This document shows, piece by piece, positions 47 to 32,341 of a stretch of DNA of 32,341 nucleotides. The translations under genes were made by a program, and so were the position numbers. Under the pieces are notes generated by a model. The model did no database searches and was not told the DNA's origin. It worked only from the letters and a program-made list of their open reading frames with translations. How positions within the stretch are numbered: the stretch's first letter is position 1; each line of letters begins with the position of its first letter. Origin of the DNA: Microscilla marina ATCC 23134 (GTDB lineage: Bacteria; Bacteroidota; Bacteroidia; Cytophagales; Microscillaceae); contig NZ_AAWS01000006.1 in the NCBI RefSeq assembly GCF_000169175.1, positions 263,192 through 295,532 on the forward strand. The letters are read 5' to 3'.

Positions 47-158
47 GTGCCTTTTTTTGCCAAATCCGCAAATAACACACCGCCGTGAACACCCGCAAGG
101 GGAAAGAAATAACACTAAATTCAAGTATTTCACACAATTTAAATAACACATAACAAAA

Positions 159-611
159 ATGTTTAGCCTATTTACCACCTCCAAAAAGGGGCAGCCTAGT
201 GTGGTGAAAAAGCCCAGTAAACCTAGGTTTGCTGCCAGATTAATAATTGTAAAACGACATGCCGACTGGTGTGCCGCAAGTAAGGTGATGACTCCGGTTT
301 TCAATGATTTGAAAAATCGTTTCGACGGTAGAGAAGTGTTGTTCGTGGACTTTAATTACACCAATAATACCTCCCGTTATCAGTCTGACCTTTTGGCTAC
401 TGCCCTCGGAGTTGACCGCAGTGTTAAAAAGCATGCGGGCACTGGGTTTATCTTGTTGATAGACGCCGAGACCAAGCAGGTAATCGAGAAATTTACTCGT
501 AGACAATCGTTCGAAGAAATGGTAAACTTAGTAAAAGACAGACTTTTAGAGAGTTTGGAGCGGGAAAAAATGATTGCCCAACTACAAAAAGAAGCTGGCA
601 AAGGCAAATAA
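159..611 (+). CDS. Thioredoxin-fold protein with a monothiol CxxS motif (WCAAS instead of WCGPC)
   Basis: ATG start, 150 aa. The segment IIVKRHADWCAASKVMTPVFNDL lines up with the thioredoxin active-site block (ADWCGPCK-MIAPIL pattern). The second Cys is replaced by Ser. A terminator follows. Confidence 0.55.
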   Translation: MFSLFTTSKKGQPSVVKKPSKPRFAARLIIVKRHADWCAASKVMTPVFNDLKNRFDGREVLFVDFNYTNNTSRYQSDLLATALGVDRSVKKHAGTGFILLIDAETKQVIEKFTRRQSFEEMVNLVKDRLLESLEREKMIAQLQKEAGKGK

Positions 612-642
612 CCTTTTGTGGTTTCGTTGGGCAACAGGTGTA

Positions 643-668
643 CACAACCCTGCATGGGGTTGTGGTTT
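643..668 (+). terminator. Rho-independent terminator of the 159-611 gene
   Basis: cacaaccc (643-650), loop tgcat, gggttgtg (656-663), followed by gtttt. Confidence 0.5.
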
Positions 669-1072
669 TCCCCAACAAACACCCCTTTAAAATTTAAACA
701 AATTTATTAGATGAAAACGTGTAGCGTCGAAACCCATTCGGCGAAAAAAGGACTTGATTGTCCAGGCTATGAATGGGTTTATTTATATCGTATAAATACG
801 ATATTTTAGATTTGTTTATTCACCTATCACAGGTGGAGCAAAAACCGCATAGGTACTTCATTAAAACCTGAGCAATAGGGTAATGCTCTGTTGCTCATAA
901 ACCTAAAATAACAATGACAAAATCAAAAATGATATTACGGAATGTTACTGTATTCAGTAGTAACAATTTTATACTCCTGAAGGAGTTTGGTTCTTTTCTT
1001 TATTCTAATACTTCATGAAGCTTTGAGCGACTTGACTATAGTTTGCCTGACAAATATAAATAGGGTAAGTTA

Positions 1073-2387
1073 TTGAAAAACAGTTGTTTAATACCTAAAA
1101 AAAACACTTGGTCGCTTGAAGCTTTGTCATTGAAAACTCTTATAGTGATGAGTTCTCGACTAAAAAAAGCGGACTTGACAAAGCCTCGCAAAACATTGGA
1201 GGCTTTGTTCCGCAAAAAGCTTAAACCAGAAAATTTAGAAGAAAATTCGCCTTATAAAGCCGTAGGGCAATTGATCCGTGGTGACTGGCAACGCACACGC
1301 CACGAGAAAAAAGCATTTTATCATTTTTTAGATAACATAGCCCGACGTAAGGGGTATGAGATTTACCGTGAAGCTGAGGCTTTGCTCGCCGTATTTGGTC
1401 AGGCAAGCCAATGGTTGCGTTTGCCCAAAGGCTGGATGCCTACCCAAACTGAAGATACCCAAACGGTATTTTCTGATTTGGTACATTACCTATTTGCACA
1501 GTATGAGGTACCCCAGTTTATGGACAATGCCTGGCACAAAGGCAATGTGGTACATATCGACTGGTTTATACATTTGGGCAAAGGGCAAAATATCAGGACT
1601 GCCCCTAATATGTATGCACATTTGACTAAAAAAATGGCGCATCATTTTTTGCAGGCACCCGCAGATTATACCATCGAAGAAGCCTTGACATACGGACAAG
1701 TAACTGCCTTAGGGGGCGATGATTTGTTGATTAAACAATTGCTGAACAGCCCATTGTTGGGTATATGCCAAGACCAAGGTTTTTGGTTGTCGCTATTACA
1801 ATTCTTCCTGAACAACAAAGAGCTGGCTCAAGATAACCACATAAAAAATATAGTGGAGTTTATCAACATCAAACGAATGACTGATGTGGTAGTAGATGAT
1901 TATGGACAACTTACAGGCAAAGTAGGCAGACCTTATTTGCTTAAGCAAAAAACGGCTGTTTCGATGATGCGAGAGGTAAGGGTTTGGCAACAAAAAATGG
2001 CGAATAGTTATAGCTATGACCAGCTCACTACTTGGGCACCTGTCAAGGTGAATAATTTCTTGAAAAAAGGCAATGGTATCACTTATCGCATTATGCAACT
2101 GACCAACAATTTTGCGCTCTTGCGTGAAGGCGAAAAAAATGAGACATTGTGTGGGCAGTTATATGCATCGATGCCAAATAGGTGATGTATCTATTTGGGC
2201 ATTGACCGCTACTTCGGGTTCTTCAGTAAAACCACTATTAACGATAGAACTCAAGCAGAACAATACCATTGCACAAGTAAGGGGAAAGGTAAACAGAATG
2301 CCTGACCTGGAAGAAGCTAAGTTGATAAAACAATGGGCTACCCGTGAACAACTTAAGGTAGCACAGCATTGTGAGATTAGTGATTAA
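1073..2387 (+). pseudogene. Frameshifted member of a paralogous hypothetical-protein family (paralog of 2640-4022). It is split into ORFs 1073-2185 and 2112-2387 by one extra base in an A7 run near 2129-2135.
   Basis: The two ORFs together align collinearly with the intact 460-aa paralog. Matching blocks include LVHYLFAQYEVPQFMDNAW vs LLQHLFVKYAMPEFMYPVW, WFIHLGKGQNI vs WFVHLGKGGSI, FLQAPADYTIEEALTYGQVTALGG vs FTQAPRHYSVEKALLYGQVGALGG, and the C-terminal MRHCVGSYMHRCQIGDVSIW vs MMHCVGTYTHKCMGGYSTIW. The 2112 frame is +1 relative to the 1073 frame. Deleting one A from gaaaaaaatg restores a single ~455-aa ORF. The track start at 1073 is TTG; the first in-frame ATG is at 1148. Confidence 0.6.
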
Positions 2388-2639
2388 TTAATTGTTTAAA
2401 TAACTGATAATGAGGATTATATTTAAATATTTAGCGATATGCGAAACCATATTTTAGATGGCTTAGAAGATAGCGATCCTCTTGCTGAGAAAGCTATTTT
2501 CTTTCCTCTCCCTTCCTGAAAAAGCCAAAGAAGTAAGCTTGTTTGGGTAGGGTAAGACGACCAATGCTATTGTAGCATACCTTCATAACAAAACAATTAC
2601 TTCTTGTATTGGGGTGGGTAAAATATACCTGCCCACAAT

Positions 2640-4022
2640 TTGGCAATCATGAATAGACGACACTGTTCAAAATCTCACCGCAAAAACCGTAAATCACTCA
2701 AGATAGAGAAGAAAAAGCGGTTTCATAAAAAGCAAAACAAAAAATATCTCAAAAAATTAGTGTGGTCGGCTTATGCCAACACCATCAATGGTTTGCACCA
2801 ACTTTATCATCAAGAAGTCAAGGCAGAAAATGCGTCTTTGTTGTTGCAAGGTATAGGAGATGTTTTACAGAATAACCAGCAGTTGGAGGGAGGAAAACGC
2901 ATCAAGTTTTTAAACTTCTTAAAACAAGTTTTACGACCTGAAACCCTCCCGCTTTTGTATGCTCCTACTGCCTTATACAACACCTTTCGCTTTCGCAAAT
3001 ACTGGCTCAATACTCTAGAGAGTTGGCAACCTGTCAAGCACTGGAACCCTACCCATAAAAGCGGGGGTTTTGAGGTGTATGAGGCAATGCTGAAAGATTT
3101 ATTACAACATTTGTTTGTGAAGTATGCGATGCCTGAGTTTATGTATCCAGTCTGGCAAGCCCAACATTCTACCCATTTATGGTGGTTTGTTCACTTGGGC
3201 AAAGGGGGCAGTATTAAAGATGTGCGTTCATTGCCTTTTAAGCTGAATAGTAAAATGGCGCATTATTTTACCCAAGCCCCCAGACACTACTCAGTAGAAA
3301 AAGCTTTGCTGTATGGGCAAGTAGGTGCACTAGGTGGCACTGAGGCTTTTTTTGAACAATGGTATGCTGCCCACTGGAAACGGATTTATAAAGACCCCCT
3401 GTTTTTTAGGCAAGTTATACAGTTTTTTGCCCGCTATCCTGAGCTCACCAATAACCGAGAAGTAGCACAGGTCATTAGTTTTATCAATGCTCACAAATAC
3501 GATGGACAAAAAATATACACCAGAGCTAAGGGCATTGTACATGAGCCACCTGTTGCCCCAAGTTTTAGCCTCAAGGGGAGGACTGACCAATCAATCATGC
3601 GATTGGTAGACGAGTGGTTGAGTTCGCCTAGAGTATTGAGTAGTGTGTTTGATGATTCGTTACTTACCTGGACTCCAGACCCTACCAGCGACTTTGAATA
3701 TTGGGATGCTGAAAAACAGGTATTGTACAAAATCTCGCAATTGATTAACAACTATGAGCTATGGCTAGAGGGCAAAGTTATGATGCATTGTGTAGGTACC
3801 TATACCCACAAATGCATGGGGGGCTATAGTACCATTTGGACAATGACCAAGGTAAATGCTCAGGGCAAAGAGGAGAAGTGTGTGACTATTGAGATGGGCA
3901 AAAAATGGAGAGTTTGCGAAATAAAGGGCAAGCGAAACCGTGAACCTAAGCCACAAGAGGTGGAAGTGGTAAAGCAATGGGTAAATAAAGAAAATCTGGC
4001 TTTGTCGATTGATTATTTATAG
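2640..4022 (+). CDS. Hypothetical protein, intact paralog of 1073-2387. It has a highly basic N-terminal tail and a C-terminal Cys/His cluster (HCVGxYxHxC...C...C). It may be PcfJ-like, unverified.
   Basis: 460-aa ORF. The TTG at 2640 is less likely than the ATG at 2649 (MNRRHCSKSHRKNRK...). Collinear similarity to the upstream frameshifted paralog. The N-terminal 40 aa are about 45% Lys/Arg/His. Confidence 0.7.
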   Translation: MAIMNRRHCSKSHRKNRKSLKIEKKKRFHKKQNKKYLKKLVWSAYANTINGLHQLYHQEVKAENASLLLQGIGDVLQNNQQLEGGKRIKFLNFLKQVLRPETLPLLYAPTALYNTFRFRKYWLNTLESWQPVKHWNPTHKSGGFEVYEAMLKDLLQHLFVKYAMPEFMYPVWQAQHSTHLWWFVHLGKGGSIKDVRSLPFKLNSKMAHYFTQAPRHYSVEKALLYGQVGALGGTEAFFEQWYAAHWKRIYKDPLFFRQVIQFFARYPELTNNREVAQVISFINAHKYDGQKIYTRAKGIVHEPPVAPSFSLKGRTDQSIMRLVDEWLSSPRVLSSVFDDSLLTWTPDPTSDFEYWDAEKQVLYKISQLINNYELWLEGKVMMHCVGTYTHKCMGGYSTIWTMTKVNAQGKEEKCVTIEMGKKWRVCEIKGKRNREPKPQEVEVVKQWVNKENLALSIDYL

Positions 4023-4442
4023 TAGTTAGTCATCACAGAGTTTAGTCATTTAACCATCCCCCCCTGTTTAACTCCGTTGAGAGATTACTGTATGTCGTCT
4101 TATTTGGGCAGTGGTGTATCAGGACACTGTTCTATTTGGTGTTTGTTAATAAGTACAATTACTCTAGGAGTAAATGATAGTACAAGCAAGAGGGATATAT
4201 AGCTATATGCTTGACCATAAAGAGACGGGTATGCTGAATGCTTGAGCAGATGCTCAAGGTTTGATTTATGATGTGTGTTGATACATTGTAAACCTAAAAA
4301 TCGTGTGTGAAATGTAAGCTTAAGAAAAGTAAGCTAATTTGGAACAGGTACGTGAGGTTTCGCGCTATCTATTTTTTTTGTGTAGAAAACTGAAGTAACT
4401 TTAATCATCAAATTTTTGAACTTATTATGAAATCTTAACATT

Positions 4443-5276
4443 ATGAATCCTACTGTATTAATTACAGGTGCGTCGAGTGGTATTGGAGCTGCTTTGGCGT
4501 ATGTTTTTGCTGCTAAAGGCTACAATACGGTGTTGGTGGCACGTCGCGAAGACAAGCTCAAGGCCATTGCCGAAGATATAGAACATCGGTTTGAAACCAA
4601 AGCATGGGTGAAACCACAAGACTTAAGTGTAGCAAATGCCGCCCAAACACTTTATGAGCAACTCATCGAGAAAGACATTCATATCAATGTATTGATAAAT
4701 AATGCAGGTTTGGGCAATATAGGTAAACTTGCTGAACAAACTACTGCCAATAGTTTTCAGATGTTACAAGTAAATGTGACGGCTTTGACTGAACTTACTC
4801 AAGTGTTTGTCAAAGATATGTTGGTACAAAAAGAACGAGACCTAGCCAATGGAGTAGCAGCGCATTACAAAATAATGAACATAGCTTCTTTGGCAGCGTT
4901 TCAGCCTGGCCCTAATATGGCGGTTTATTTTGCTTCTAAGGCTTATGTTTTATCATTTTCAGAAGCTATAGCCGAAGAGTTGAAAGAAGCTAACATAGGT
5001 GTTACTACTGTATGTCCTGGTATTACCCGCACCGATTTTTTGGAAAAAGCTCATTTGGCTAAAGAAAACCTTTATACCGAATGGGTAAGCCAAAGTGCCC
5101 AAGAAGTAGCTGAGGAAGCTTATAAAGCTTTATTTGATGGCAAAAGAGTGCATATTACCGGAGGAGTAGTTAATAGTATTTCAGCGAAAGCGGCAAGTAT
5201 AGTACCCAACCGTTACCTCAACCCTATTACGGGTTGGTTGATAGAAAACATAGGAGGAGGCAAAGATGTGTGGTGA
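4443..5276 (+). CDS. Short-chain dehydrogenase/reductase (SDR) family oxidoreductase
   Basis: N-terminal Rossmann motif LITGASSGIGAALA (TGxxxGIG). NNAG motif present. Catalytic YxxxK as YFASKAY. 277 aa is typical of classical SDRs. Confidence 0.9.
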   Translation: MNPTVLITGASSGIGAALAYVFAAKGYNTVLVARREDKLKAIAEDIEHRFETKAWVKPQDLSVANAAQTLYEQLIEKDIHINVLINNAGLGNIGKLAEQTTANSFQMLQVNVTALTELTQVFVKDMLVQKERDLANGVAAHYKIMNIASLAAFQPGPNMAVYFASKAYVLSFSEAIAEELKEANIGVTTVCPGITRTDFLEKAHLAKENLYTEWVSQSAQEVAEEAYKALFDGKRVHITGGVVNSISAKAASIVPNRYLNPITGWLIENIGGGKDVW

Positions 5277-5336
5277 TATATAAATAACACAATGGAGAAG
5301 TACTTGTGGCGTCTCTCCATTGTGTTTTATATTGGG

Positions 5337-5876
5337 TTATAAGAAAACCCTTAATCCTAATCCTAAGTTGATTACCCTAGAAACATTTTCTGACGAACTT
5401 ACAGAGTTGGTGTCTCTGGTATACTGGTAGTATAGTCCTGGTTCAAGCGCTACATTAGGTGCCAAGAAAAACGAGTAACCTACGCCTACTTGCCAGTTAA
5501 AATTACTTACCTCAGTATTGCTATCCTTCACATTGGTTTGTCCCCAGCCTACTCTTCCAGCAAGAAACAAATCCTTTACCACATAACCCCGTACCCCAGG
5601 CTGAAGGCTTACTGTGTTGGCTACATTGCTGAAGTTAAAGTCGGTATTAAGTGTAAGGGCAAAACCTGGGGTGATAAAATAACCTACCTGTGGTGATATG
5701 TTAAACACATTTTGTGTGCTTGAAGTAGTTACCCCATTGATAGTGTTTTCGAATGTTGCGTTTACGAAAGCAATATTGCCGCCCAACATCCACCTGCCTT
5801 TAGCATAATGGTTATTTTGTGCCTGTAGGTTGAGGGCAACAAATATGAGGACGACTAGTAAAGTTAACTTTTTCAT
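5337..5876 (-). CDS. Small outer-membrane beta-barrel protein (OmpA-like beta-barrel / porin family)
   Basis: Signal peptide MKKLTLLVVLIFVALNLQAQ. Alternating hydrophobic/aromatic beta-strand pattern. Gly/Asn/Tyr-rich. C-terminal aromatic-ended RVFL. 179 aa. Confidence 0.6.
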   Translation of the reverse strand: MKKLTLLVVLIFVALNLQAQNNHYAKGRWMLGGNIAFVNATFENTINGVTTSSTQNVFNISPQVGYFITPGFALTLNTDFNFSNVANTVSLQPGVRGYVVKDLFLAGRVGWGQTNVKDSNTEVSNFNWQVGVGYSFFLAPNVALEPGLYYQYTRDTNSVSSSENVSRVINLGLGLRVFL

Positions 5877-6039
5877 AAATAGTGTTGTGTTTAAGCTTTG
5901 AACAAGTTCATTGATAAAGCAACAAACTTACTTGTTTTTTGGGGTTTTCTCAAATACTATTTCTCAAACCATTTTTCACAAAAAATACACAGGTAGGTTT
6001 TAAAAACTTGTCAGACCTGGTTAGCATTTAGAAACCTCG

Positions 6040-6165
6040 ACAGGGGTAAGTCGCTAGATGCCGATGCATATCGGTGCTTTAAGCAACAAGCTGCAAGTCC
6101 TTAGATACCGATGATGGTGCCCCGCAAGCGGGATGTCGGTATAGCCTGCACCAGGAAAACCCTGT
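6040..6165. other. GC-rich (~55%) island with repeated AGATRCCGATG motifs and nested hairpins. Candidate small structured RNA or regulator-binding array.
   Basis: tagatgccgatg (6054-6065) and tagataccgatg (6103-6114) are direct repeats. gatgtcggtat (~6132-6142) is an inverted copy. Local hairpins are ccgat-gcat-atcgg and uaccgau...gucggua, the latter enclosing cccg-caag-cggg. This is a sharp compositional contrast with the AT-rich flanks. Confidence 0.3.
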
Positions 6166-6336: not shown

Positions 6337-6795
6337 ATGTCAAATAATATTGTAATACAATCTTCTAATGGTACTAAAATAGGCGAACTTGTACTTAAAA
6401 ACTATTACCAGCCCACGTGGTCACCGTCTAAGGCTGACTTTTTTTTGGTCTATTACAACCTTGATCTTCATGGCGAAAAAAAGACTAACAACCGATACTT
6501 CACCAATAAGTATGTGATCAACGAAAAGTACCTGGCACTTCAAGAGTTTGTTGTCAAGGCAAGTGAAAAAGATTTGGATAATCAAAATACGCAATTGGTT
6601 GTGATAGATTTAGAACATAAACAGCAAAGTATAATATCCAGGATAGAACATGGGTATGTTACGCCAGTAGAGTTTACCACTAACGCTATTTTATATACAA
6701 AAAGCAAGGTAGGACAAGGTAGCCTACACAGCCATTTTGAAGCAACCCTAGCAGACATAAAAAACTGGGAGCCTATTGGCCTGACTAATAAATGA
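6337..6795 (+). CDS. Hypothetical protein (152 aa, no recognisable domain)
   Basis: ATG-initiated ORF with coding-like composition. It overlaps the 3' end of the convergent LRR gene by 11 bp. Confidence 0.45.
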   Translation: MSNNIVIQSSNGTKIGELVLKNYYQPTWSPSKADFFLVYYNLDLHGEKKTNNRYFTNKYVINEKYLALQEFVVKASEKDLDNQNTQLVVIDLEHKQQSIISRIEHGYVTPVEFTTNAILYTKSKVGQGSLHSHFEATLADIKNWEPIGLTNK

Positions 6796-8251
6796 TAGTA
6801 TGAGGCAAGGCTAATTTTAAACGTTCTATTTCTTGAGCTTTTATAGGATTTCCTGCAAGCAGTAAAGTGTGCAAGCGTGGAAAATCTCCTTGCGTTACAG
6901 GAAGAGATTTGAGTTGGTTGTTTTCCAGTATCAGTGTTTCTAAATAATGAAGCTGACCAATGTTGGCGGGCAATGAGCTTAGTTGATTGTATCCCAAATG
7001 CAAAAAACGAAGCTTTTTTAGATTGTTGATAGTTTCCGGAATTTTGAGTAACCTATTTCCTTCAAAATTAGCTTCCTGCAACTGCTCCAGTGCCCCTATG
7101 CTATCAGGCAGGTCTACCAACTGGTTATAACTCAAATCTATACTCTTTAATTTTTTAAGGTAAATCAGGCTTTTGGGTAAAACGCTGATGTGGTCGTGCT
7201 TAATAGCGAGTTGTTGTAGTTGAATAAAATCTCCTATCCATTCAGGCAATGCTTGCCACTGTGTGTGTTGTATAACGAGCGTTTCTAACCAAGGTACTTT
7301 AGAGATTTGCAGAGCCATTTGGTGAATGTTCCCCCCTCCCGTTTTCAATGCTTTCAGGTTTTTTAGTTGACTAAAACCTTCTGGTAAATATTGAATTGGA
7401 TTATTGATCAGGTCAAGCTCTTGTAAGTGAGTCAACCGAGATAGGGACGCTGGCAGAGAAGTAAGTTGATTATCAGCTAAATATAATGCATTAAGCTGTA
7501 GCATATCTCCCAAGTGGGCAGGCAAACTTTGGAGTAGGTTATGGTTCAAGTGTAACTCTTCAATTTGCCCAAGTTTTGTGATGGCAACGGGTAAACTTTT
7601 TAGGCGATTGTAAGACAAATACAAGGCTTTGAGTTGAGTAAGCTTTCCTATACTTTCGGGGAGTTTGAAGAGTACATTACGGCTTGCCACAAGTTTTTGC
7701 AAAGAGGTAAGTGAACCTAACTGACTAGGCAAAGTGCTTAAATTTAGGTCTGATATAGTGAGCAGGGTTACCTGCAAACGCTGTAATACCTGCCATTGCC
7801 TAATCAACAGTTGTAGTTCCCGTTTATGTACAAGGGTCAGGCTAGCTAATGTAAGGTTTTGTGCCACAGCAAGCCAATCTAATTTATGCTCCAGGCAAAA
7901 CAACAAGGCTGTTTTTACCTTACAGTAAGGGTTATGAGTCAGTAGCATTTTCAATAGTTCCACTCCGTCAACCTCTGGGTATTTTATAAGCCTTTTGAAT
8001 ATGCGAAAAACTTGTTTGGGATCTAAAGTACTGTACAACGATTCTTGACTAAATTTTTGATTTGCCAGCTTGTCAAAAAATAGCCTGGCTTTGTTTTGAA
8101 TGGTAGCATCCTCGTGAAAATAACTCAAAAACAATAAAGTAGAGGTGAGCTCAGGTGCAGGCGAATAGGCAGGTAATAGCTCAAAACCTAGCAGAATATT
8201 AGCACTTTCGCTACTTTGTAACAACTTCTTTAAGTTACCTATGGCAGTCAT
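6785..8251 (-). CDS. Leucine-rich repeat (LRR) protein, cytoplasmic, with a unique ~170-aa N-terminal domain
   Basis: About 13 consecutive 23-aa LRRs of the LxxLxxLxLxxNxLxxLPxxIgx type (e.g. LTQLKALYLSYNRLKSLPVAITKL). No signal peptide. Confidence 0.85.
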   Translation of the reverse strand: MTAIGNLKKLLQSSESANILLGFELLPAYSPAPELTSTLLFLSYFHEDATIQNKARLFFDKLANQKFSQESLYSTLDPKQVFRIFKRLIKYPEVDGVELLKMLLTHNPYCKVKTALLFCLEHKLDWLAVAQNLTLASLTLVHKRELQLLIRQWQVLQRLQVTLLTISDLNLSTLPSQLGSLTSLQKLVASRNVLFKLPESIGKLTQLKALYLSYNRLKSLPVAITKLGQIEELHLNHNLLQSLPAHLGDMLQLNALYLADNQLTSLPASLSRLTHLQELDLINNPIQYLPEGFSQLKNLKALKTGGGNIHQMALQISKVPWLETLVIQHTQWQALPEWIGDFIQLQQLAIKHDHISVLPKSLIYLKKLKSIDLSYNQLVDLPDSIGALEQLQEANFEGNRLLKIPETINNLKKLRFLHLGYNQLSSLPANIGQLHYLETLILENNQLKSLPVTQGDFPRLHTLLLAGNPIKAQEIERLKLALPHTIIY

Positions 8252-8282
8252 TTATTTCCCTTTTTCTGTTTGTTAAAAGGTA

Positions 8283-10184
8283 CTAAAAAGATACTTGTGT
8301 TTGGGGCAACCAATCAGTGATTCGTTGTTTTTCGTGTGTTGGAATAGGGTTTTTATCCAATAATAAAAAACGCAACCCCCGCAGTTTCTGTATAGTCTGG
8401 GGCAGTTTAGTAAGCTGGTTGTTTTTTAGGTTGAGCGCATACAAACTGCGCATATTACCTATGCTTTTAGGCAATTGGGTAAGTTGATTTCCTTCAAGGT
8501 TCAAATGAACTACTTTACTTAATTGCCCTATACTTTCAGGCAATTGGGTAAGTTGATTTCCTTCAAGGTTCAAATGAACTACTTTACTTAATTGCCCTAT
8601 ACTTTCAGGCAAAGCAGTTAATGCGTTATAGTTCAATGACAGTAAAAATAATTTTTTCAAGTCATATATGATTTTGGGCAATTCAGTTAGCTTATTACCA
8701 TCCACACTTAATTGATGTAAATTTTTAAGTTTGCCCAGTGACTTAGGTAATACTTGTAATTGATTGTAACTCAGGTTGAGCAAGCTAAGTCGGTGAAGGT
8801 TACCTATCCCTGGTGGTAGGTGAGTAAGTTTATTACCATCCACACTTAATTGATGTAAATTTTTAAGTTTGCCCAGTGACTTAGGTAATACTTGTAGTTG
8901 ATTGTAACTCAGGTTGAGCAAGCTAAGTTGCTGAAGGTTACTTAGCTTTGGTGGTAGGTGAGTAAGCTTATTATAGGTCAGTTTTAGCTGAGTTAATGTT
9001 AATATTTGAGTAACCTGTTGGGGGAGACATGACAATTGATTTTGTTCAAGGTTTAACTCGCGTAGCTCGCTTAGTTTACCTATAGTGGCAGGCAAAGCGT
9101 CCAGTTGGTTGCGGGCAACCGACAATACCATCAGTTGAGCAAGATTGCCTATGCTGTCAGGTAGTTTTTTCAAGTGATTGTTGCTTAAACTCAAGTGGGA
9201 AAGCTTACGCAGATTGCCTATACTTTCTGGCAAATGTTTTAATTGATTTTTCTGAAGTTTTAAATATACCAGTGACGATAACTTGGTGATTACAGCTGGG
9301 AATTTTTCTATTCGGTTATTGTCGAGTGCCAGTTTTCCTATTTGCTTTAGTTGCTGCATAGACTCAGGTAGTTGTTGTATACGACAAGACGAAAGGGTAA
9401 GGTTTTGTAAATTGCTCAAGGTTCCCATTGTTTCAGGCAATGCCTTGATCCGATCTGATTTGAGAGTAAACGTCACAAGTTTTGAAAGTTTGCCTATATT
9501 GACAGGTACACAATGAAACTTATTACCACTTAGGTTGAGTGATTTTAGAGTGGTAAGGTGGGTTATTGCCAAAGGAAACTCTGTCAGTTGATTATTGTTT
9601 AGGTTGAGTTCCTGTAGGTGGGTTAATTGGTTTATTTCAGTAGGTATTTCAGTCAAACGGTTGCTTTGCAAGCACAGAGTTTGGATTTTTGGGATTTGAA
9701 ATACCAACGGAGGTAGTTTTTCCAATCCAAACTCCAACAAGTTGAGCGTAGAAGATGACAACACTGGATGCTTAAGGTTTTGTATGTCAATGAGATTATG
9801 CTTCAAACCAAACCTATAGCCTCGGTTAATGTGTGCTATGGCAATAGACACAATCTCTTTGGCATTTACTAAAGGCGATTTACAAAACTGATTTAAAAAG
9901 TCAGATACGTCATGTTCACCCGAATAATGTTGGTAATGCAGCTTTTTAGTAAAGCGCGTAAACCCTAAAGAAGCATGTTCAGCAAACACTGTTTTCATTA
10001 TTTCCTTTACTACGTTGTTTCGATGAAATAGCGATAAAACATAAATATAGCCCAACATAGACAAGGGTACCCCATTACCAGCCATAATTTGAACTGCCTG
10101 CCCTATGTTTGTCAGATCGTTGCTGTTAATCAATTGCTTGAGCTTTTTTGTATATATGCTTTTGTCCAAAGTTCCATCCATCAT
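8283..10184 (-). CDS. Leucine-rich repeat (LRR) protein with about 20 repeats, internal perfect duplications, and a unique ~180-aa N-terminal domain
   Basis: 633 aa. 23-aa LRRs throughout. The exact 23-aa unit LTQLPESIGQLSKVVHLNLEGNQ occurs twice. The 46-aa unit LQVLPKSLGKLKNLHQLSVDGNKLTHLPPGIGNLHRLSLLNLSYNQ occurs twice. No signal peptide. Confidence 0.85.
   Translation of the reverse strand: MMDGTLDKSIYTKKLKQLINSNDLTNIGQAVQIMAGNGVPLSMLGYIYVLSLFHRNNVVKEIMKTVFAEHASLGFTRFTKKLHYQHYSGEHDVSDFLNQFCKSPLVNAKEIVSIAIAHINRGYRFGLKHNLIDIQNLKHPVLSSSTLNLLEFGLEKLPPLVFQIPKIQTLCLQSNRLTEIPTEINQLTHLQELNLNNNQLTEFPLAITHLTTLKSLNLSGNKFHCVPVNIGKLSKLVTFTLKSDRIKALPETMGTLSNLQNLTLSSCRIQQLPESMQQLKQIGKLALDNNRIEKFPAVITKLSSLVYLKLQKNQLKHLPESIGNLRKLSHLSLSNNHLKKLPDSIGNLAQLMVLSVARNQLDALPATIGKLSELRELNLEQNQLSCLPQQVTQILTLTQLKLTYNKLTHLPPKLSNLQQLSLLNLSYNQLQVLPKSLGKLKNLHQLSVDGNKLTHLPPGIGNLHRLSLLNLSYNQLQVLPKSLGKLKNLHQLSVDGNKLTELPKIIYDLKKLFLLSLNYNALTALPESIGQLSKVVHLNLEGNQLTQLPESIGQLSKVVHLNLEGNQLTQLPKSIGNMRSLYALNLKNNQLTKLPQTIQKLRGLRFLLLDKNPIPTHEKQRITDWLPQTQVSF
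8470..8607. repeat. Perfect tandem duplication, 2 x 69 bp, inside the LRR gene
   Basis: ggcaattgggtaagttgatttccttcaaggttcaaatgaactactttacttaattgccctatactttcag is repeated head-to-tail. 69 bp equals one 23-aa LRR. Confidence 0.9.
8693..8968. repeat. Near-perfect tandem duplication, 2 x 138 bp (~94% identity), inside the LRR gene
   Basis: tattaccatccacacttaattgatgtaaatttttaagtttgcccagtgacttaggtaatacttgta... recurs with an offset of exactly 138 bp. 138 bp equals two LRR units. Confidence 0.85.
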
Positions 10185-14253: not shown

Positions 14254-14291
14254 TTACCTTAGCACTGACTTAATACTAAGGTAACTTTTTT
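14254..14291 (+). terminator. Plus-oriented terminator-like hairpin with no annotated plus-strand gene upstream
   Basis: ttaccttag (14254-14262) and ctaaggtaa (14276-14284) form a 9-bp stem with a 13-nt loop. A T6 run (14286-14291) follows. The element abuts the Uma2 stop codon, but it is in the wrong orientation to terminate that minus-strand gene. Confidence 0.3.
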
Positions 14292-14859
14292 AAAACTTCA
14301 CCTTCCTATAAATATCTTTAACCGTTAGATGGAGGTTCAATTGTACAAGTGTGATGGTATCTTCAGGTTGTTGATAGGTGGTATATTTCCAAAAACCTTC
14401 TTGTCGTTCGTATACTTCTACAAAATACTTGTATTGATCGATGAGTATATAATAACGCAAAGAAGGTATGCGCATATAAGTATTTTGCTTTTGGTCTTTG
14501 TCATATTGCCGGGTAGACTTAGACAAAACCTCTACCACCAAAGAGGGGGATGTGATCTTGTGATCTTGCCCATCTTCTAAGTCTTTTGGGGCACAGGTAT
14601 ACACTACATCTGGGTATACATAATGGGTATTAGCTAATATTTCTACTTTGATGTCGCCAGTGAAAACATCGCAGTCATCAGAAATTAAGTTGTCGATAAG
14701 GTGATGAGTATTATTGGCAATACGGTTATGATTGATTGTACCGCCTGACATGGCAAATACTTCTCCATGATAGTACTCATAACGTGTACCGTCGGTTTGC
14801 TCCAAATCAAGGTACTCTGGGTAAGAATAATGTGTTTGTTTAGGTTTTGCTTGTCCCAT
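14290..14859 (-). CDS. Uma2-family (DUF820) PD-(D/E)xK endonuclease-like protein
   Basis: N-terminal YSYPEYLDLEQTDGTRYEYYHGEV and the internal SPSLVVEVLSKST...D...Q block are hallmark Uma2 motifs. 189 aa. There is a paralog at the 3' edge of the window. Confidence 0.8.
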   Translation of the reverse strand: MGQAKPKQTHYSYPEYLDLEQTDGTRYEYYHGEVFAMSGGTINHNRIANNTHHLIDNLISDDCDVFTGDIKVEILANTHYVYPDVVYTCAPKDLEDGQDHKITSPSLVVEVLSKSTRQYDKDQKQNTYMRIPSLRYYILIDQYKYFVEVYERQEGFWKYTTYQQPEDTITLVQLNLHLTVKDIYRKVKF

Positions 14860-18907: not shown

Positions 18908-21103
18908 ATGGCGAAGAAGTTTCCTTCCTACATACAGTTAGACATGATGGATTGTGGTCCTTCATGTGTAAAAATCATTTCAGAACATTACGGCAAACGT
19001 TATTCGCTGCAATACCTCCGCGAACAAAGCTATATTACCCGCGAGGGGGTTTCTCTTTTGGGGATAAGCGATGCTGCTGAAGCAGTAGGCTTTCGTACCA
19101 TTGGGGTAAAAACCACTTTTGAACAATTAGCTGATGAGGCTCCGTTACCTTTTATTGCCCACTGGAACCAGCAACACTTTATAGTAGTACACAAAATTAC
19201 CAAAAAAAAGGTGCACGTGTCTGACCCCGCAGTAGGTTTGGTGACTTACGACCGTGAGCAGTTTATGAAACACTGGGCGAGCACCCGTGAGCAAGGCGAA
19301 GACAAAGGCGTGGCATTGTTGATGGAGCCAACCCCTGAATTTTTTCAGCGGGAAAGTGACGAAAAGCTGAAGAAAACCAGTTGGAAGTTTTTGCTGGGAT
19401 ATGTGTTGCGTTATAAAAAGTTTTTGGTACAACTATTTTTAGGGTTGTTGCTGGGGAGTTTGCTTAGTATGATTTTCCCCTTCCTTACCCAATCGGTAGT
19501 AGATATTGGAATTAACACTCGCGATCTCAACTTTATTTATATTGTATTGCTGGGGCAGTTTATGCTCTTTTTTAGCCAAACTGCAGTAGACTTTATAAGG
19601 CGATGGATTTTACTCCACCTCAGTACCCGGATTAACATATCGCTCATTTCTGATTTTTTGATCAAACTTATGAAGTTGCCCATTGGTTTTTTTGACACCA
19701 AAATGATTGGCGACCTTTTGCAGCGGATCAATGATCACCACCGGATTGAACGGTTTTTAAGTACCTCAACCCTTACTATCCTATTTTCTTTTTTTAACCT
19801 GATCGTTTTCGGGTTTGTGCTTGCGTATTACAATCTGTATATTTTTCTTATCTTTTTGATAGGCAGCGTTTTATATATTGGCTGGGTGTTGGCATTTTTG
19901 AATATACGTAAAAAGCTTGACTATAAGCGTTTTCAGGAAATGTCACGTAATCAAAGTAGCTTGATTCACCTTATCAATGGCATGCAAGAGATTAAGCTAA
20001 ATAATTGCGAAAAGCAAAAGAGGTGGGAATGGGAGCGTATCCAGGCAAAGATGTTTAAGATCAACGTAAAGAGCGTAACTCTGGAGCAAACCCAGCAGGC
20101 AGGTAGCTTATTTATCAATCAAAGTAAAAATATCTTGATTACTTTTTTTGCGGCTTATGCGGTGGTCAATGGAACAATGACCCTGGGGATGATGCTTGCT
20201 GTGCAGTCAATTATTGGACAACTAGACGGCCCTATTACCCAAATGATAAGTTTTGTGTATGAAATGCAAGACGCCAAGATAAGCTTGGAGCGTTTGGGCG
20301 AAATACATGAAAAAGAAGAGGAAGAAAGCAGCGAAGGAGATCAGGTAACTATATTACCTGAGGGCAAAAATCTTCATTTAGAGAACATTACTTTTCAGTA
20401 TGAAGGTCCCCACTCTCCTAAAGTTATAGATGGAGTGACTTTGACTATTCCTGAGGGTAAAATTACAGCCATTGTAGGTACCAGTGGTAGTGGTAAAACA
20501 ACCTTGCTTAAGCTATTGCTAAAGTTTTATCCTGTGACTGAAGGTGAAATAAAACTGGAAGGTGTTCAACTCAATAACCTGAGTGGGCGTTTGTGGCGCG
20601 AACGCTGTGGAACAGTCATGCAAGACGGCTTTATTTTTTCTGATACCATTGCCCGCAATATTGCGGTAAGTGACGAAATCATAGATCAACAAAGGTTGCG
20701 TCACGCGGTGCAAGTAGCCAATATCCAAGAGTTTGTAGAAGACCTGCCACTAGGGTATAATACCAAGATAGGGCAAGATGGTATAGGTGTAAGTGGAGGA
20801 CAAAAACAACGAGTTTTGATTGCCCGTGCGGTATACAAAAACCCTGAGTTTTTATTCTTTGACGAAGCTACTTCAGCGCTGGACGCCAATAATGAACGCA
20901 TTATTATGGAAAACCTGGACGAGTTTTTTAAAGGCAAAACTGCCGTAGTAATTGCTCACCGTTTGAGCACCGTAAAAAATGCTGACCAAATCATTGTACT
21001 CGAAAAAGGAAAACTGGTGGAACAAGGCACTCACAAAGAGTTGACGGCTAAAAGAGGCATCTACTATAACCTGGTAAAGAACCAGTTGGAATTAGGTGGG
21101 TAA
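18908..21103 (+). CDS. Peptidase C39 domain-containing ABC transporter (bacteriocin / double-glycine leader peptide processing exporter)
   Basis: N-terminal C39 papain-like domain with catalytic Cys in MMDCGPSCV and downstream His (HFIVVH). 6-TM ABC transmembrane domain. NBD with Walker A GTSGSGKTTL, signature VSGGQKQRV, Walker B LFFDEATSALD and H-loop AHRLST. 731 aa. Confidence 0.9.
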   Translation: MAKKFPSYIQLDMMDCGPSCVKIISEHYGKRYSLQYLREQSYITREGVSLLGISDAAEAVGFRTIGVKTTFEQLADEAPLPFIAHWNQQHFIVVHKITKKKVHVSDPAVGLVTYDREQFMKHWASTREQGEDKGVALLMEPTPEFFQRESDEKLKKTSWKFLLGYVLRYKKFLVQLFLGLLLGSLLSMIFPFLTQSVVDIGINTRDLNFIYIVLLGQFMLFFSQTAVDFIRRWILLHLSTRINISLISDFLIKLMKLPIGFFDTKMIGDLLQRINDHHRIERFLSTSTLTILFSFFNLIVFGFVLAYYNLYIFLIFLIGSVLYIGWVLAFLNIRKKLDYKRFQEMSRNQSSLIHLINGMQEIKLNNCEKQKRWEWERIQAKMFKINVKSVTLEQTQQAGSLFINQSKNILITFFAAYAVVNGTMTLGMMLAVQSIIGQLDGPITQMISFVYEMQDAKISLERLGEIHEKEEEESSEGDQVTILPEGKNLHLENITFQYEGPHSPKVIDGVTLTIPEGKITAIVGTSGSGKTTLLKLLLKFYPVTEGEIKLEGVQLNNLSGRLWRERCGTVMQDGFIFSDTIARNIAVSDEIIDQQRLRHAVQVANIQEFVEDLPLGYNTKIGQDGIGVSGGQKQRVLIARAVYKNPEFLFFDEATSALDANNERIIMENLDEFFKGKTAVVIAHRLSTVKNADQIIVLEKGKLVEQGTHKELTAKRGIYYNLVKNQLELGG

Positions 21104-21134
21104 CTGGTATAAAACCTTATAAACAAGCTAAAAA

Positions 21135-21166
21135 CCCTCTCTTAGTTGAGCAATGAACAGAGAGGG
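21135..21166. terminator. Hairpin between convergent ABC exporter and HlyD genes, mainly oriented for the minus strand
   Basis: ccctctct (21135-21142) pairs with agagaggg (21159-21166) around a 16-nt loop. On the minus strand the stem is followed by a T5 run (rc of aaaaacc). Confidence 0.45.
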
Positions 21167-21209
21167 GAGGTAGTGAATTCAGTGCAATGGTGAGTTACTT
21201 GATGTAGCC

Positions 21210-22625
21210 CTAAAACTGATCAAACAATTTTGCGAATTGATTAAAAATACGCTCAATCAGACGGAGGTCTTTGGTGATAATATCGGCTTGTCCTTGCATT
21301 TCTGCCTTGAACTCCAGGTCTTTTTTATAACTCGTCTTCAACCCGTTGGGCAGGCTTACATTGATCGTGTACATAGATCCTTTTTGTGGGTCAGCACTTG
21401 CTTGTGCTATCAACGATATGCGTTCTACTTTCCCCTCTACCATGCCAAACTCATCGGCGGGGTAGTTGGCAAAACGAATGTTTACCACTTGTCCCACTTT
21501 TACTTTACCCGACCCGTTTACTGGCATATTAATCTTGCCAATCAAGTTCTTGTTTTGTGGAATTACCGCCATGACCGTTTGTTCAGGCTTTACAAACTGA
21601 TTATCGCTCCAATAAGACAAAAATGAGACCTTGCCTTCCACAGGAGTAGTGAGTATGTAGCGTTGTATCCAGATGTTTACCTGGCTGCGTAAGGTTTGGA
21701 AAGCGTTGTTAGTGGCAAGTAAATAGGTTCTTTCCTGTTCGCGAAAAGTAAGGGTAAGTTCTCCAATGTTGTTTTGTAATTCATTAATCCTAATTCGGTT
21801 ATTAATGATACTGGCCTCTCCATTTTTCAAGGCCCTGCGTTGTTGCAACAAACTGGCTTTAGTTTTGTCAAATTCAAGCCTTGCCATTAGTTTTTCTTCG
21901 GCAAGGGTGGAGTCTGCTTTGTATTGATTATTGAATATTTTGAATTCTTTGCCTAAAATCCTTTGTTGAGAAAGTAGGTTTTGGTTGAGCTTCTTGTATT
22001 GGATAATCTGCGATTGCAGGTTTTGAATTTGGTTTTCAGGTTTCGACAACTCATAAAAAAGCAATAACTCTCTAAAAGTTTTAGCAAACGATTCGTAGGC
22101 TCCTTGCAACTCGCCCAGCTTAAGGTTTTGTTGACTTATTACTTTGTCAAAAGCCAGTAAATCTTGGGTGCCTCTTTGGCGGTTGTTTAATATTTTTTGA
22201 AATTGAGTAATTTGTTTTTTCAATACTTGATAGTCTTCAAAAACTGTGGGGTTTTGAATATATCCCAACACCTCTTGAGGCTTTACATTTTGCCCATCTT
22301 TTACCATCAACTTTAATGCTCCCGAACTACGCGCCAAAATGCGTTGGGGAGGGGTTTTGGTAGTAACCATAATGCTGGAGTGAATAATATCGGGATATTT
22401 CATAAACCATGATACTGTCAGCAATACCATAAAAGTGAAAAATACTATAGTAATGCCCCAGCGAATAATCCAATGAGGAATATAGCTGAGAATCTCTTGT
22501 ACTTCATCACTTCTTAACTCTAAGTCGGGGATCTCTTCTGCTTTTTGGGTAGGTGTATGAGTAGAAACTATAGTGCCTGTAGGTGTACTATGGGTATTGT
22601 TTGGTGTCTCTTGTGCTTCTGGCAT
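21210..22625 (-). CDS. HlyD-family secretion (membrane fusion) protein
   Basis: N-terminal cytoplasmic tail. Single TM (WIIRWGITIVFFTFMVLLTVSWF). Long coiled-coil region. C-terminal beta-barrel/lipoyl-like segment (VEGKVSFL...GKVKVGQVVNIRFANYP). 471 aa. Confidence 0.85.
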   Translation of the reverse strand: MPEAQETPNNTHSTPTGTIVSTHTPTQKAEEIPDLELRSDEVQEILSYIPHWIIRWGITIVFFTFMVLLTVSWFMKYPDIIHSSIMVTTKTPPQRILARSSGALKLMVKDGQNVKPQEVLGYIQNPTVFEDYQVLKKQITQFQKILNNRQRGTQDLLAFDKVISQQNLKLGELQGAYESFAKTFRELLLFYELSKPENQIQNLQSQIIQYKKLNQNLLSQQRILGKEFKIFNNQYKADSTLAEEKLMARLEFDKTKASLLQQRRALKNGEASIINNRIRINELQNNIGELTLTFREQERTYLLATNNAFQTLRSQVNIWIQRYILTTPVEGKVSFLSYWSDNQFVKPEQTVMAVIPQNKNLIGKINMPVNGSGKVKVGQVVNIRFANYPADEFGMVEGKVERISLIAQASADPQKGSMYTINVSLPNGLKTSYKKDLEFKAEMQGQADIITKDLRLIERIFNQFAKLFDQF

Positions 22626-32026: not shown

Positions 32027-32341
32027 TTAATCAAACTTTACTCGCTTATAAATATCACTTACCTTAAGGCTTAAGTTCAACTTGGGCAAGGCAATTACTT
32101 GATTGGGGGCATTGTAAAGAGTATAAGACCATAAATCTTTTTGGCGGCTGTAAAGCTCTATTTCACAAGTATTTTGTTCTATCAACATGTAATACTCAAG
32201 TGAAGGCAAGCGCATATACGCTTTTTGCTTTTCGTTTTTGTCATAGCCTTGGGTAGACTTAGAGAGGACTTCTGCCACCAGAGAAGGGTGTTTTACATAC
32301 ACTTCTTGGTCGTTTTCTACATCATTGGCATCACAGGTAAC
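32027..32341 (-). CDS. Uma2-family (DUF820) endonuclease-like protein, 5'-truncated by the window edge. Paralog of 14290-14859.
   Basis: The visible C-terminal part PSLVAEVLSKSTQGYDKNEKQKAYMRLPSLEYYMLIEQ...LNLSLKVSDIYKRVKF aligns with SPSLVVEVLSKSTRQYDKDQKQNTYMRIPSLRYYILIDQ...LNLHLTVKDIYRKVKF of the first Uma2 gene. The reading frame stays open to the last base of the window. Confidence 0.7.
   Translation of the reverse strand, partial: VTCDANDVENDQEVYVKHPSLVAEVLSKSTQGYDKNEKQKAYMRLPSLEYYMLIEQNTCEIELYSRQKDLWSYTLYNAPNQVIALPKLNLSLKVSDIYKRVKFD

Follow-up and report, generated by a model that had tools for sequence, protein, structure and literature searches.

An extra adenine probably created a young pseudogene in the PcfJ-domain gene array of Microscilla marina ATCC 23134

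Results

A PcfJ-domain gene split at a run of adenines

We analyzed a 32,341-nucleotide (nt) stretch of the Microscilla marina ATCC 23134 genome (contig NZ_AAWS01000006.1, positions 263,192 to 295,532; hereafter, the window), which contains a tandem array of genes encoding PcfJ-domain proteins. In this array, the gene designated paralog B is split by a change of reading frame at a run of seven A's. A reading made from the letters alone (the original prediction) had proposed that two listed open reading frames (ORFs), 1073-2185 and 2112-2387, are the N- and C-terminal parts of one protein. Both ORFs are present in the window, the second in the +1 frame relative to the first, and their common origin was borne out by alignment over the whole length. 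When one A was deleted, a 412-amino-acid (aa) protein was obtained (...LLREGEKMRHCVGSYMHRC...), and it aligned with the product of the neighboring ORF 2640-4022 over 409 residues across the junction (30% identity, E 4e-66). The A7 homopolymer was read directly in the window, in the context cgtgaaggcgAAAAAAAtgagacat. The original prediction had correctly assigned the frame change to this run, but its placement at about 2129-2135 was 4 nt off (Table 1).

The upstream ORF was listed from position 1073, and we set its start at ATG 1148 because the orthologues begin with MSSRL. This ORF1 encodes 345 aa, that is, 330 native residues up to ...LLREGEK followed by 15 residues read out of frame (NETLCGQLYASMPNR), with the stop codon at 2183-2185. 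It corresponds to GenBank EAY30650 (M23134_03288) / WP_045113152 of M. marina ATCC 23134. ORF2, read from ATG 2139, encodes 82 aa (MRHCVGSY...), and its GenBank version (EAY30651 / WP_002694974) has 74 aa. The invariant H-C, the V..Y motif and the C-terminal beta-sheet of the PcfJ family are all carried by ORF2.

Domain assignment and predicted structure

Profile searches matched ORF2 to the Pfam family PF14284 (PcfJ-like) with 40 bits (E 4.3e-10; gathering score, 25 bits) and the intact paralog C with 42.8 bits (E 6e-11), whereas ORF1 alone had no Pfam match. The orthologues are annotated with a precomputed PF14284 match. The motif E-G-x-x-M/L-x-H-C-V-x-x-Y is present across the junction as EGEK/MRHCVGSY (slash, junction), with its H-C-V part in the +1 frame. 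The helical N-terminal region of the repaired protein, about 300 aa, matched no Pfam model, and the repaired protein gave no matches in searches of NCBIfam, PADLOC and PDB sequences.

The repaired protein was modeled with AlphaFold2 on the basis of 53 homologues. The model had a mean predicted local distance difference test (pLDDT) score of 88.5, with a helical region at the N-terminus and an alpha/beta domain at the C-terminus. Residues H333 and C334 are invariant in the 53 homologues. According to the model and the homologue alignment, the frame is lost after residue 330, within helix 321-331 and two residues ahead of H333/C334, and in the model this break falls between strands 304-318 and strands 347-378 of the C-terminal domain. 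The PcfJ domain may have a GNAT/MYST-like acyltransferase fold with an invariant His-Cys. Full-length homologues of about 480 aa, with both the helical N-terminal region and the PcfJ domain, occur very commonly in metagenome-assembled genomes (MAGs) of Candidatus Poribacteria and Planctomycetota, and some of these loci (among L010-L069) hold two copies.

Orthologues are intact single genes

We compared the locus with two syntenic relatives. One is an uncultured Microscilla MAG of the sister lineage (L001; GCA_947493425.1), with the gene order thioredoxin-like, PcfJ, PcfJ, SDR and outer-membrane protein; the other is a locus from a Logan assembly with four PcfJ genes in the same slot (L002). 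The orthologue in the sister MAG (94.6% nt identity) is a single intact ORF of 414 aa with A6 at the site (GAA AAA ATG, E-K-M). The L002 orthologue (79% identity) reads GAGAAAATG at the A-run site and is also an intact single ORF. The original prediction had proposed such a comparison of orthologous loci and had held that orthologues which were all intact and used different codons would argue against its reading. This holds in part: every orthologue is intact, but the closest one does not differ in codon choice and has A6.

At 78 further loci, nearly all sequences retain the peptide motif. The A-run is confined to M. marina and the sister MAG, and the other relatives are interrupted there (GAAGTAATG, GAGAAAATG and similar), so that the run is a side effect of how E-K is encoded in one small lineage, and the seventh A is specific to ATCC 23134. 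The comparison of A6 with A7 covers two lineages, M. marina and the sister MAG. All of the orthologues and paralogs examined are single ORFs and none has the split arrangement; the full-coverage homologue matches listed, from which a few shorter entries were left out, are likewise all single proteins. No close orthologue was found in metagenome contigs by an exact-pattern DNA scan or a protein-based scan. A scan of genome contigs returned the sister MAG and distant homologues, with no further close relative, and did not return M. marina itself.

The tandem array is shrinking

In L002, L006 and L008, four tandem paralogs are arranged as A-B-C-D, whereas M. marina and the sister MAG have B and C only. 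The sister copy of paralog C, also 457 aa, belongs to the same 90%-identity cluster as that of M. marina and shows no coding indel. A tblastn search within the 420-bp gap between paralog C and the SDR gene detected a relic of paralog D (E 7e-11). Its segments 4086-4169 and 4177-4275 lie in different frames and there is an in-frame stop; the translation is YCMSSYLGSGVSGHCSIW... / IVQARGIYSYMLDHKETGMLNA*ADAQGLIYDV. No relic of paralog A was found in 612-1147. Since the array has already lost members, the frameshift in B would be the latest step of an ongoing contraction.

Table 1. Features of the PcfJ-domain gene array in the window.
Feature	Position	Strand	Basis
A7 homopolymer with extra base	2133..2139	+	Sequence and orthologue comparison
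ORF1, 5' piece of split PcfJ-domain gene (paralog B)	1148..2185	+	Orthologue starts, accession match
ORF2, 3' piece, +1 frame	2139..2387	+	Pfam PcfJ, E 4e-10
6-bp in-frame deletion site, strain-specific (SYSSSYDQ to SYSYDQ)	2011..2012	+	Alignment with orthologues
Intact tandem paralog C, 457-aa PcfJ-domain protein	2649..4022	+	EAY30653 / WP_002694979
Decayed relic, C-terminal ~75 residues of paralog D	4086..4275	+	tblastn with L002 paralog D

The gene was constrained until recently

Differences between the window and the sister MAG were polarized with L002. The window branch of the gene has 15 synonymous and 14 nonsynonymous changes, with a ratio of nonsynonymous to synonymous substitution rates (dN/dS) of about 0.24, and the intact sister branch has 19 and 11, respectively (dN/dS about 0.15). 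The window branch departs from the neutral expectation of 79.5% nonsynonymous changes (p = 1.9e-4), and its counts do not differ from those of the sister branch (Fisher p = 0.43). The 82 codons 3' of the frameshift are still open. The gene was therefore under purifying selection for most of the M. marina branch, and this signature, together with the open downstream codons, indicates that the frameshift is recent.

The extra A is found in a second assembly

Over 7.3 kb aligned between the window and the sister MAG, the only coding indels were the A7 insertion and a 6-bp in-frame deletion around 2011, both in the same gene, and the A7 insertion was the only one that breaks a frame. The 6-bp deletion falls in a region with a block-mean pLDDT of 65-78. 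The window contains 39 A/T runs of at least 7 nt, whereas dinucleotide shuffles give 30 +/- 5; ORFs hold 25 of the 39. Among these 25 coding runs, the frame is broken at the A7 run only; the other 24 are intact, and therefore nothing points to homopolymer errors of a systematic kind. No other broken frame was seen in the remaining genes of the approximately 28 in the window, whose ORFs gave the expected Pfam matches, most of them spanning the profile from end to end with no signs of splitting. In itself, the A7 tract is unremarkable; the frame break at the tract is the non-random part.

The Logan reference-free assembly of the Sequence Read Archive (SRA) run SRR9429781 provided two contigs, L003 and L004, which align without gaps to window positions 129-3161 and 3203-6083 at 100% identity, also at the A7 run. 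Together they give 5.9 kb identical to the window, and the A7 lies on L003 (3,033 bp), on which the truncated 345-aa product is also called. An exact-sequence look-up matched this 345-aa version to a contig, but the 370-aa GenBank product matched none. The fused A6 protein of 412 aa was absent from a collection of 15 billion proteins. A UniRef entry labeled 'n=2 Microscilla marina' was considered as a second assembly and rejected, because the RefSeq 345-aa sub-fragment of that record accounts for it.

These results make it unlikely that the genome actually carries A6 and a single intact gene, with the extra A as a base-calling or consensus artifact. Such an artifact would fit a draft assembly, in which this contig measures 295,532 bp, and a nearest relative with A6 in the same codons, and the lack of other decay (the 82 open codons downstream and the branch dN/dS of 0.24) is exactly as an artifact would look. 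Against it stand the same A7 in the identical contig of the reference-free assembly, the absence of an A6 protein version from the protein collection and the other coding A/T runs, which are unbroken. The M. marina genome was presumably produced by capillary shotgun sequencing, a method by which 7-nt runs are not systematically miscounted.

The tract lacks the features of a phase-variable switch

Typical contingency tracts, as in Campylobacter, Haemophilus and Neisseria, are longer, usually lie near the 5' end or promoter, are conserved as tracts and vary within populations. A contingency switch here would alternate between A6 (ON) and A7 (OFF) by replication slippage, with the sequenced culture in the OFF state. 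The two closest lineages do differ by exactly one tract unit, the gene is one of a variable family of tandem paralogs, and the same mechanism could in principle reverse the mutation. However, the tract is short, and A/T runs of such length are common here (39 in 32 kb) and only mildly above the shuffles. It lies 80% into the gene, not near the 5' end, and it is not conserved, because relatives beyond the pair of M. marina and the sister MAG have interrupted sequence at the same codons. Moreover, both assemblies of the strain show the same A7 state, and A6 versus A7 separates lineages that are 5.4% apart in sequence, not cells of one population. We consider such a switch very unlikely.

Rescue at the level of expression

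The chance is slimmer still that the gene is kept partly functional by some full-length protein, restored either by RNA polymerase slippage, for which the mRNA needs A6 or A9, or by a +1 slip of tRNA-Lys on AAA-A. A +1 shift from AAA (2135-2137) to AAA (2136-2138) would keep perfect codon-anticodon pairing and give exactly the orthologous EGEK-MRHCVG, and there are precedents for interrupted genes rescued at poly(A) (PMC1088944, PMC4256274). Nevertheless, the run of 7 A's is under the published slippage lengths, although these come from the polymerases of other organisms and not from that of M. marina. In many bacteria, selection against slippage-prone runs can be seen at about 9 nt, and in a few organisms a run of 8 nt is productive (PMC1088944). 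With E. coli RNA polymerase, slippage was undetectable below T7/A8, and no deletion-type rescue was seen on any poly(A) run tested (PMC6260861). The rescue of Citrobacter rodentium tssM1 uses A11 (PMC4256274).

For translational rescue, the split arrangement is conserved in no relative, and programmed +1 frameshifting of the prfB or antizyme type thereby loses its main criterion. The A-site codon AAT is neither a stop codon nor apparently rare in this 39% GC genome and is not of the type that drives +1 shifts; neither a slow A-site nor a stimulator is found. As a prfB-like stimulator, the upstream GAAGG was rejected because it encodes the conserved E-G, and unshifted orthologues have this GAAGG too. 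We likewise rejected a -1 ribosomal shift on A_AAA_AAT: the -1 frame reads AAA TGA, an immediate stop, and ORF2 is not reached. There is a similarly slim chance that the A6/A7 tract acts as a low-frequency reversible ON/OFF switch or as a low-level slippage rescue site, varying the dosage of one member of a PcfJ-domain array with rapid turnover.

Least probable of all is a functional two-piece protein, in which ORF1 and the 82-aa fragment from ATG 2139 would both be made and reassemble into an active protein: ATG 2139 comes directly after seven A's, the 20 nt upstream of the window's own genes are A-rich, and 1 of 534 ATGs in the window, taken to be ATG 2139, has at least 7 A's in the 8 upstream bases, but this initiation context is deduced only, the cut is predicted to fall within a helix of a single compact alpha/beta domain and to part strands probably of the same sheet, ORF1 gains a 15-aa aberrant tail, and all full-coverage homologues listed are single proteins.

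Genes and elements around the array

At the position corresponding to 5280 of the window, between the SDR and outer-membrane-protein genes, the sister MAG has a 164-bp insertion with no counterpart in M. marina. By eye, its ends resemble an inverted repeat (TAAGAGTATGTTTAAA...TTTAAACATACTCT), suggesting a small element like a miniature inverted-repeat transposable element (MITE). Two adjacent large leucine-rich-repeat proteins, of 488 and 633 aa, are encoded beside the locus at 6785-10184 on the minus strand. Two ORFs of the Uma2 family (putative restriction endonuclease-like) lie at 14290-14859 and 32027-32302, also on the minus strand; the latter, near the window end, matches only the C-terminal half of the profile. 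At 18908-22625, a gene for a C39-peptidase-domain ABC exporter adjoins one for an HlyD-family protein on the opposite strand, and they look like a bacteriocin/peptide export pair.

Discussion

The original prediction had left three options for the A7 run, namely a sequencing error, pseudogenization and a slippage-based switch. Pseudogenization fits our results best; an error is unlikely and a switch is unsupported. We therefore consider it likely that a real and recent A6-to-A7 insertion produced a young pseudogene, which is an ordinary kind of event. Replication slippage would have added one A to an A6 run (GAA-AAA-ATG, E-K-M) in the ATCC 23134 lineage, and the insertion would have hit the second gene, B, of the tandem PcfJ-domain array. 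Translation from ATG 1148 would then leave the native frame after residue 330, read 15 wrong residues and terminate, and the gene would be a young pseudogene in which other damage has not yet accumulated. A recent pseudogene is expected to have an intact close orthologue and a frame disrupted in more than one assembly. Here the orthologue in the sister MAG is intact, and A7 is present both in the window and in the contig from SRR9429781, a run that may not be independent.

The product of gene B is most likely inactive, because it would be without the invariant His-Cys, the V..Y motif and half to most of the C-terminal alpha/beta domain. The locus therefore encodes one functional copy (paralog C), one freshly broken copy (paralog B) and one old relic (paralog D).

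Several points weigh against this interpretation. The loss of function is deduced from the truncation of conserved residues, and the ATG right behind the A-run could start the C-terminal fragment, so that a two-piece protein is possible. The tract length is known from consensus assemblies, both of them with A7. The origin and platform of SRR9429781 are not established, and its contigs of about 3 kb imply low coverage. The run could be a community sample, or it could consist of the original capillary reads reloaded into the SRA. If it does represent the reads of the original project, a consensus artifact is excluded, but the culture is not independent.

With the young pseudogene as the preferred interpretation, EAY30650/WP_045113152 and EAY30651/WP_002694974, which are listed as separate hypothetical proteins, should be annotated together as a single frameshifted pseudogene, which leaves the locus with a count of one functional PcfJ-domain gene. 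The array would be a small, clean case of birth-and-death turnover, from four genes to two plus a relic and then to one intact copy. The frameshift in B opens or settles no wider question.

In both the repaired protein and its paralog, the C-terminal region scores above the gathering score of the PcfJ-like family (PF14284) and has the H-C-V..Y motif, as expected of family members; the gene here differs in being broken in the middle of the domain, at about position 80 of the 147 profile positions. With contingency loci, it shares the dependence of the frame on homopolymer length and close lineages that are one unit apart, but none of the typical tract features of such loci is found or demonstrable at the A7 run. 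Genes rescued by poly(A) slippage, namely C. rodentium tssM1 (PMC4256274) and the cases in PMC1088944, are interrupted in the same way at a sense-strand A-run with the C-terminal domain in the other frame. However, the tracts in those genes comprise 9-11 A's and are conserved along with the split, whereas here there are 7 A's, a deletion or a +2 change is needed, and the split is absent from relatives. The closest likeness is to ordinary homopolymer-indel pseudogenes, which have the same extra base in a mononucleotide run, an early stop, an otherwise intact coding sequence and intact orthologues. From these the M. marina gene shows no essential difference, and the detail that it adds is its location in a shrinking tandem paralog array.
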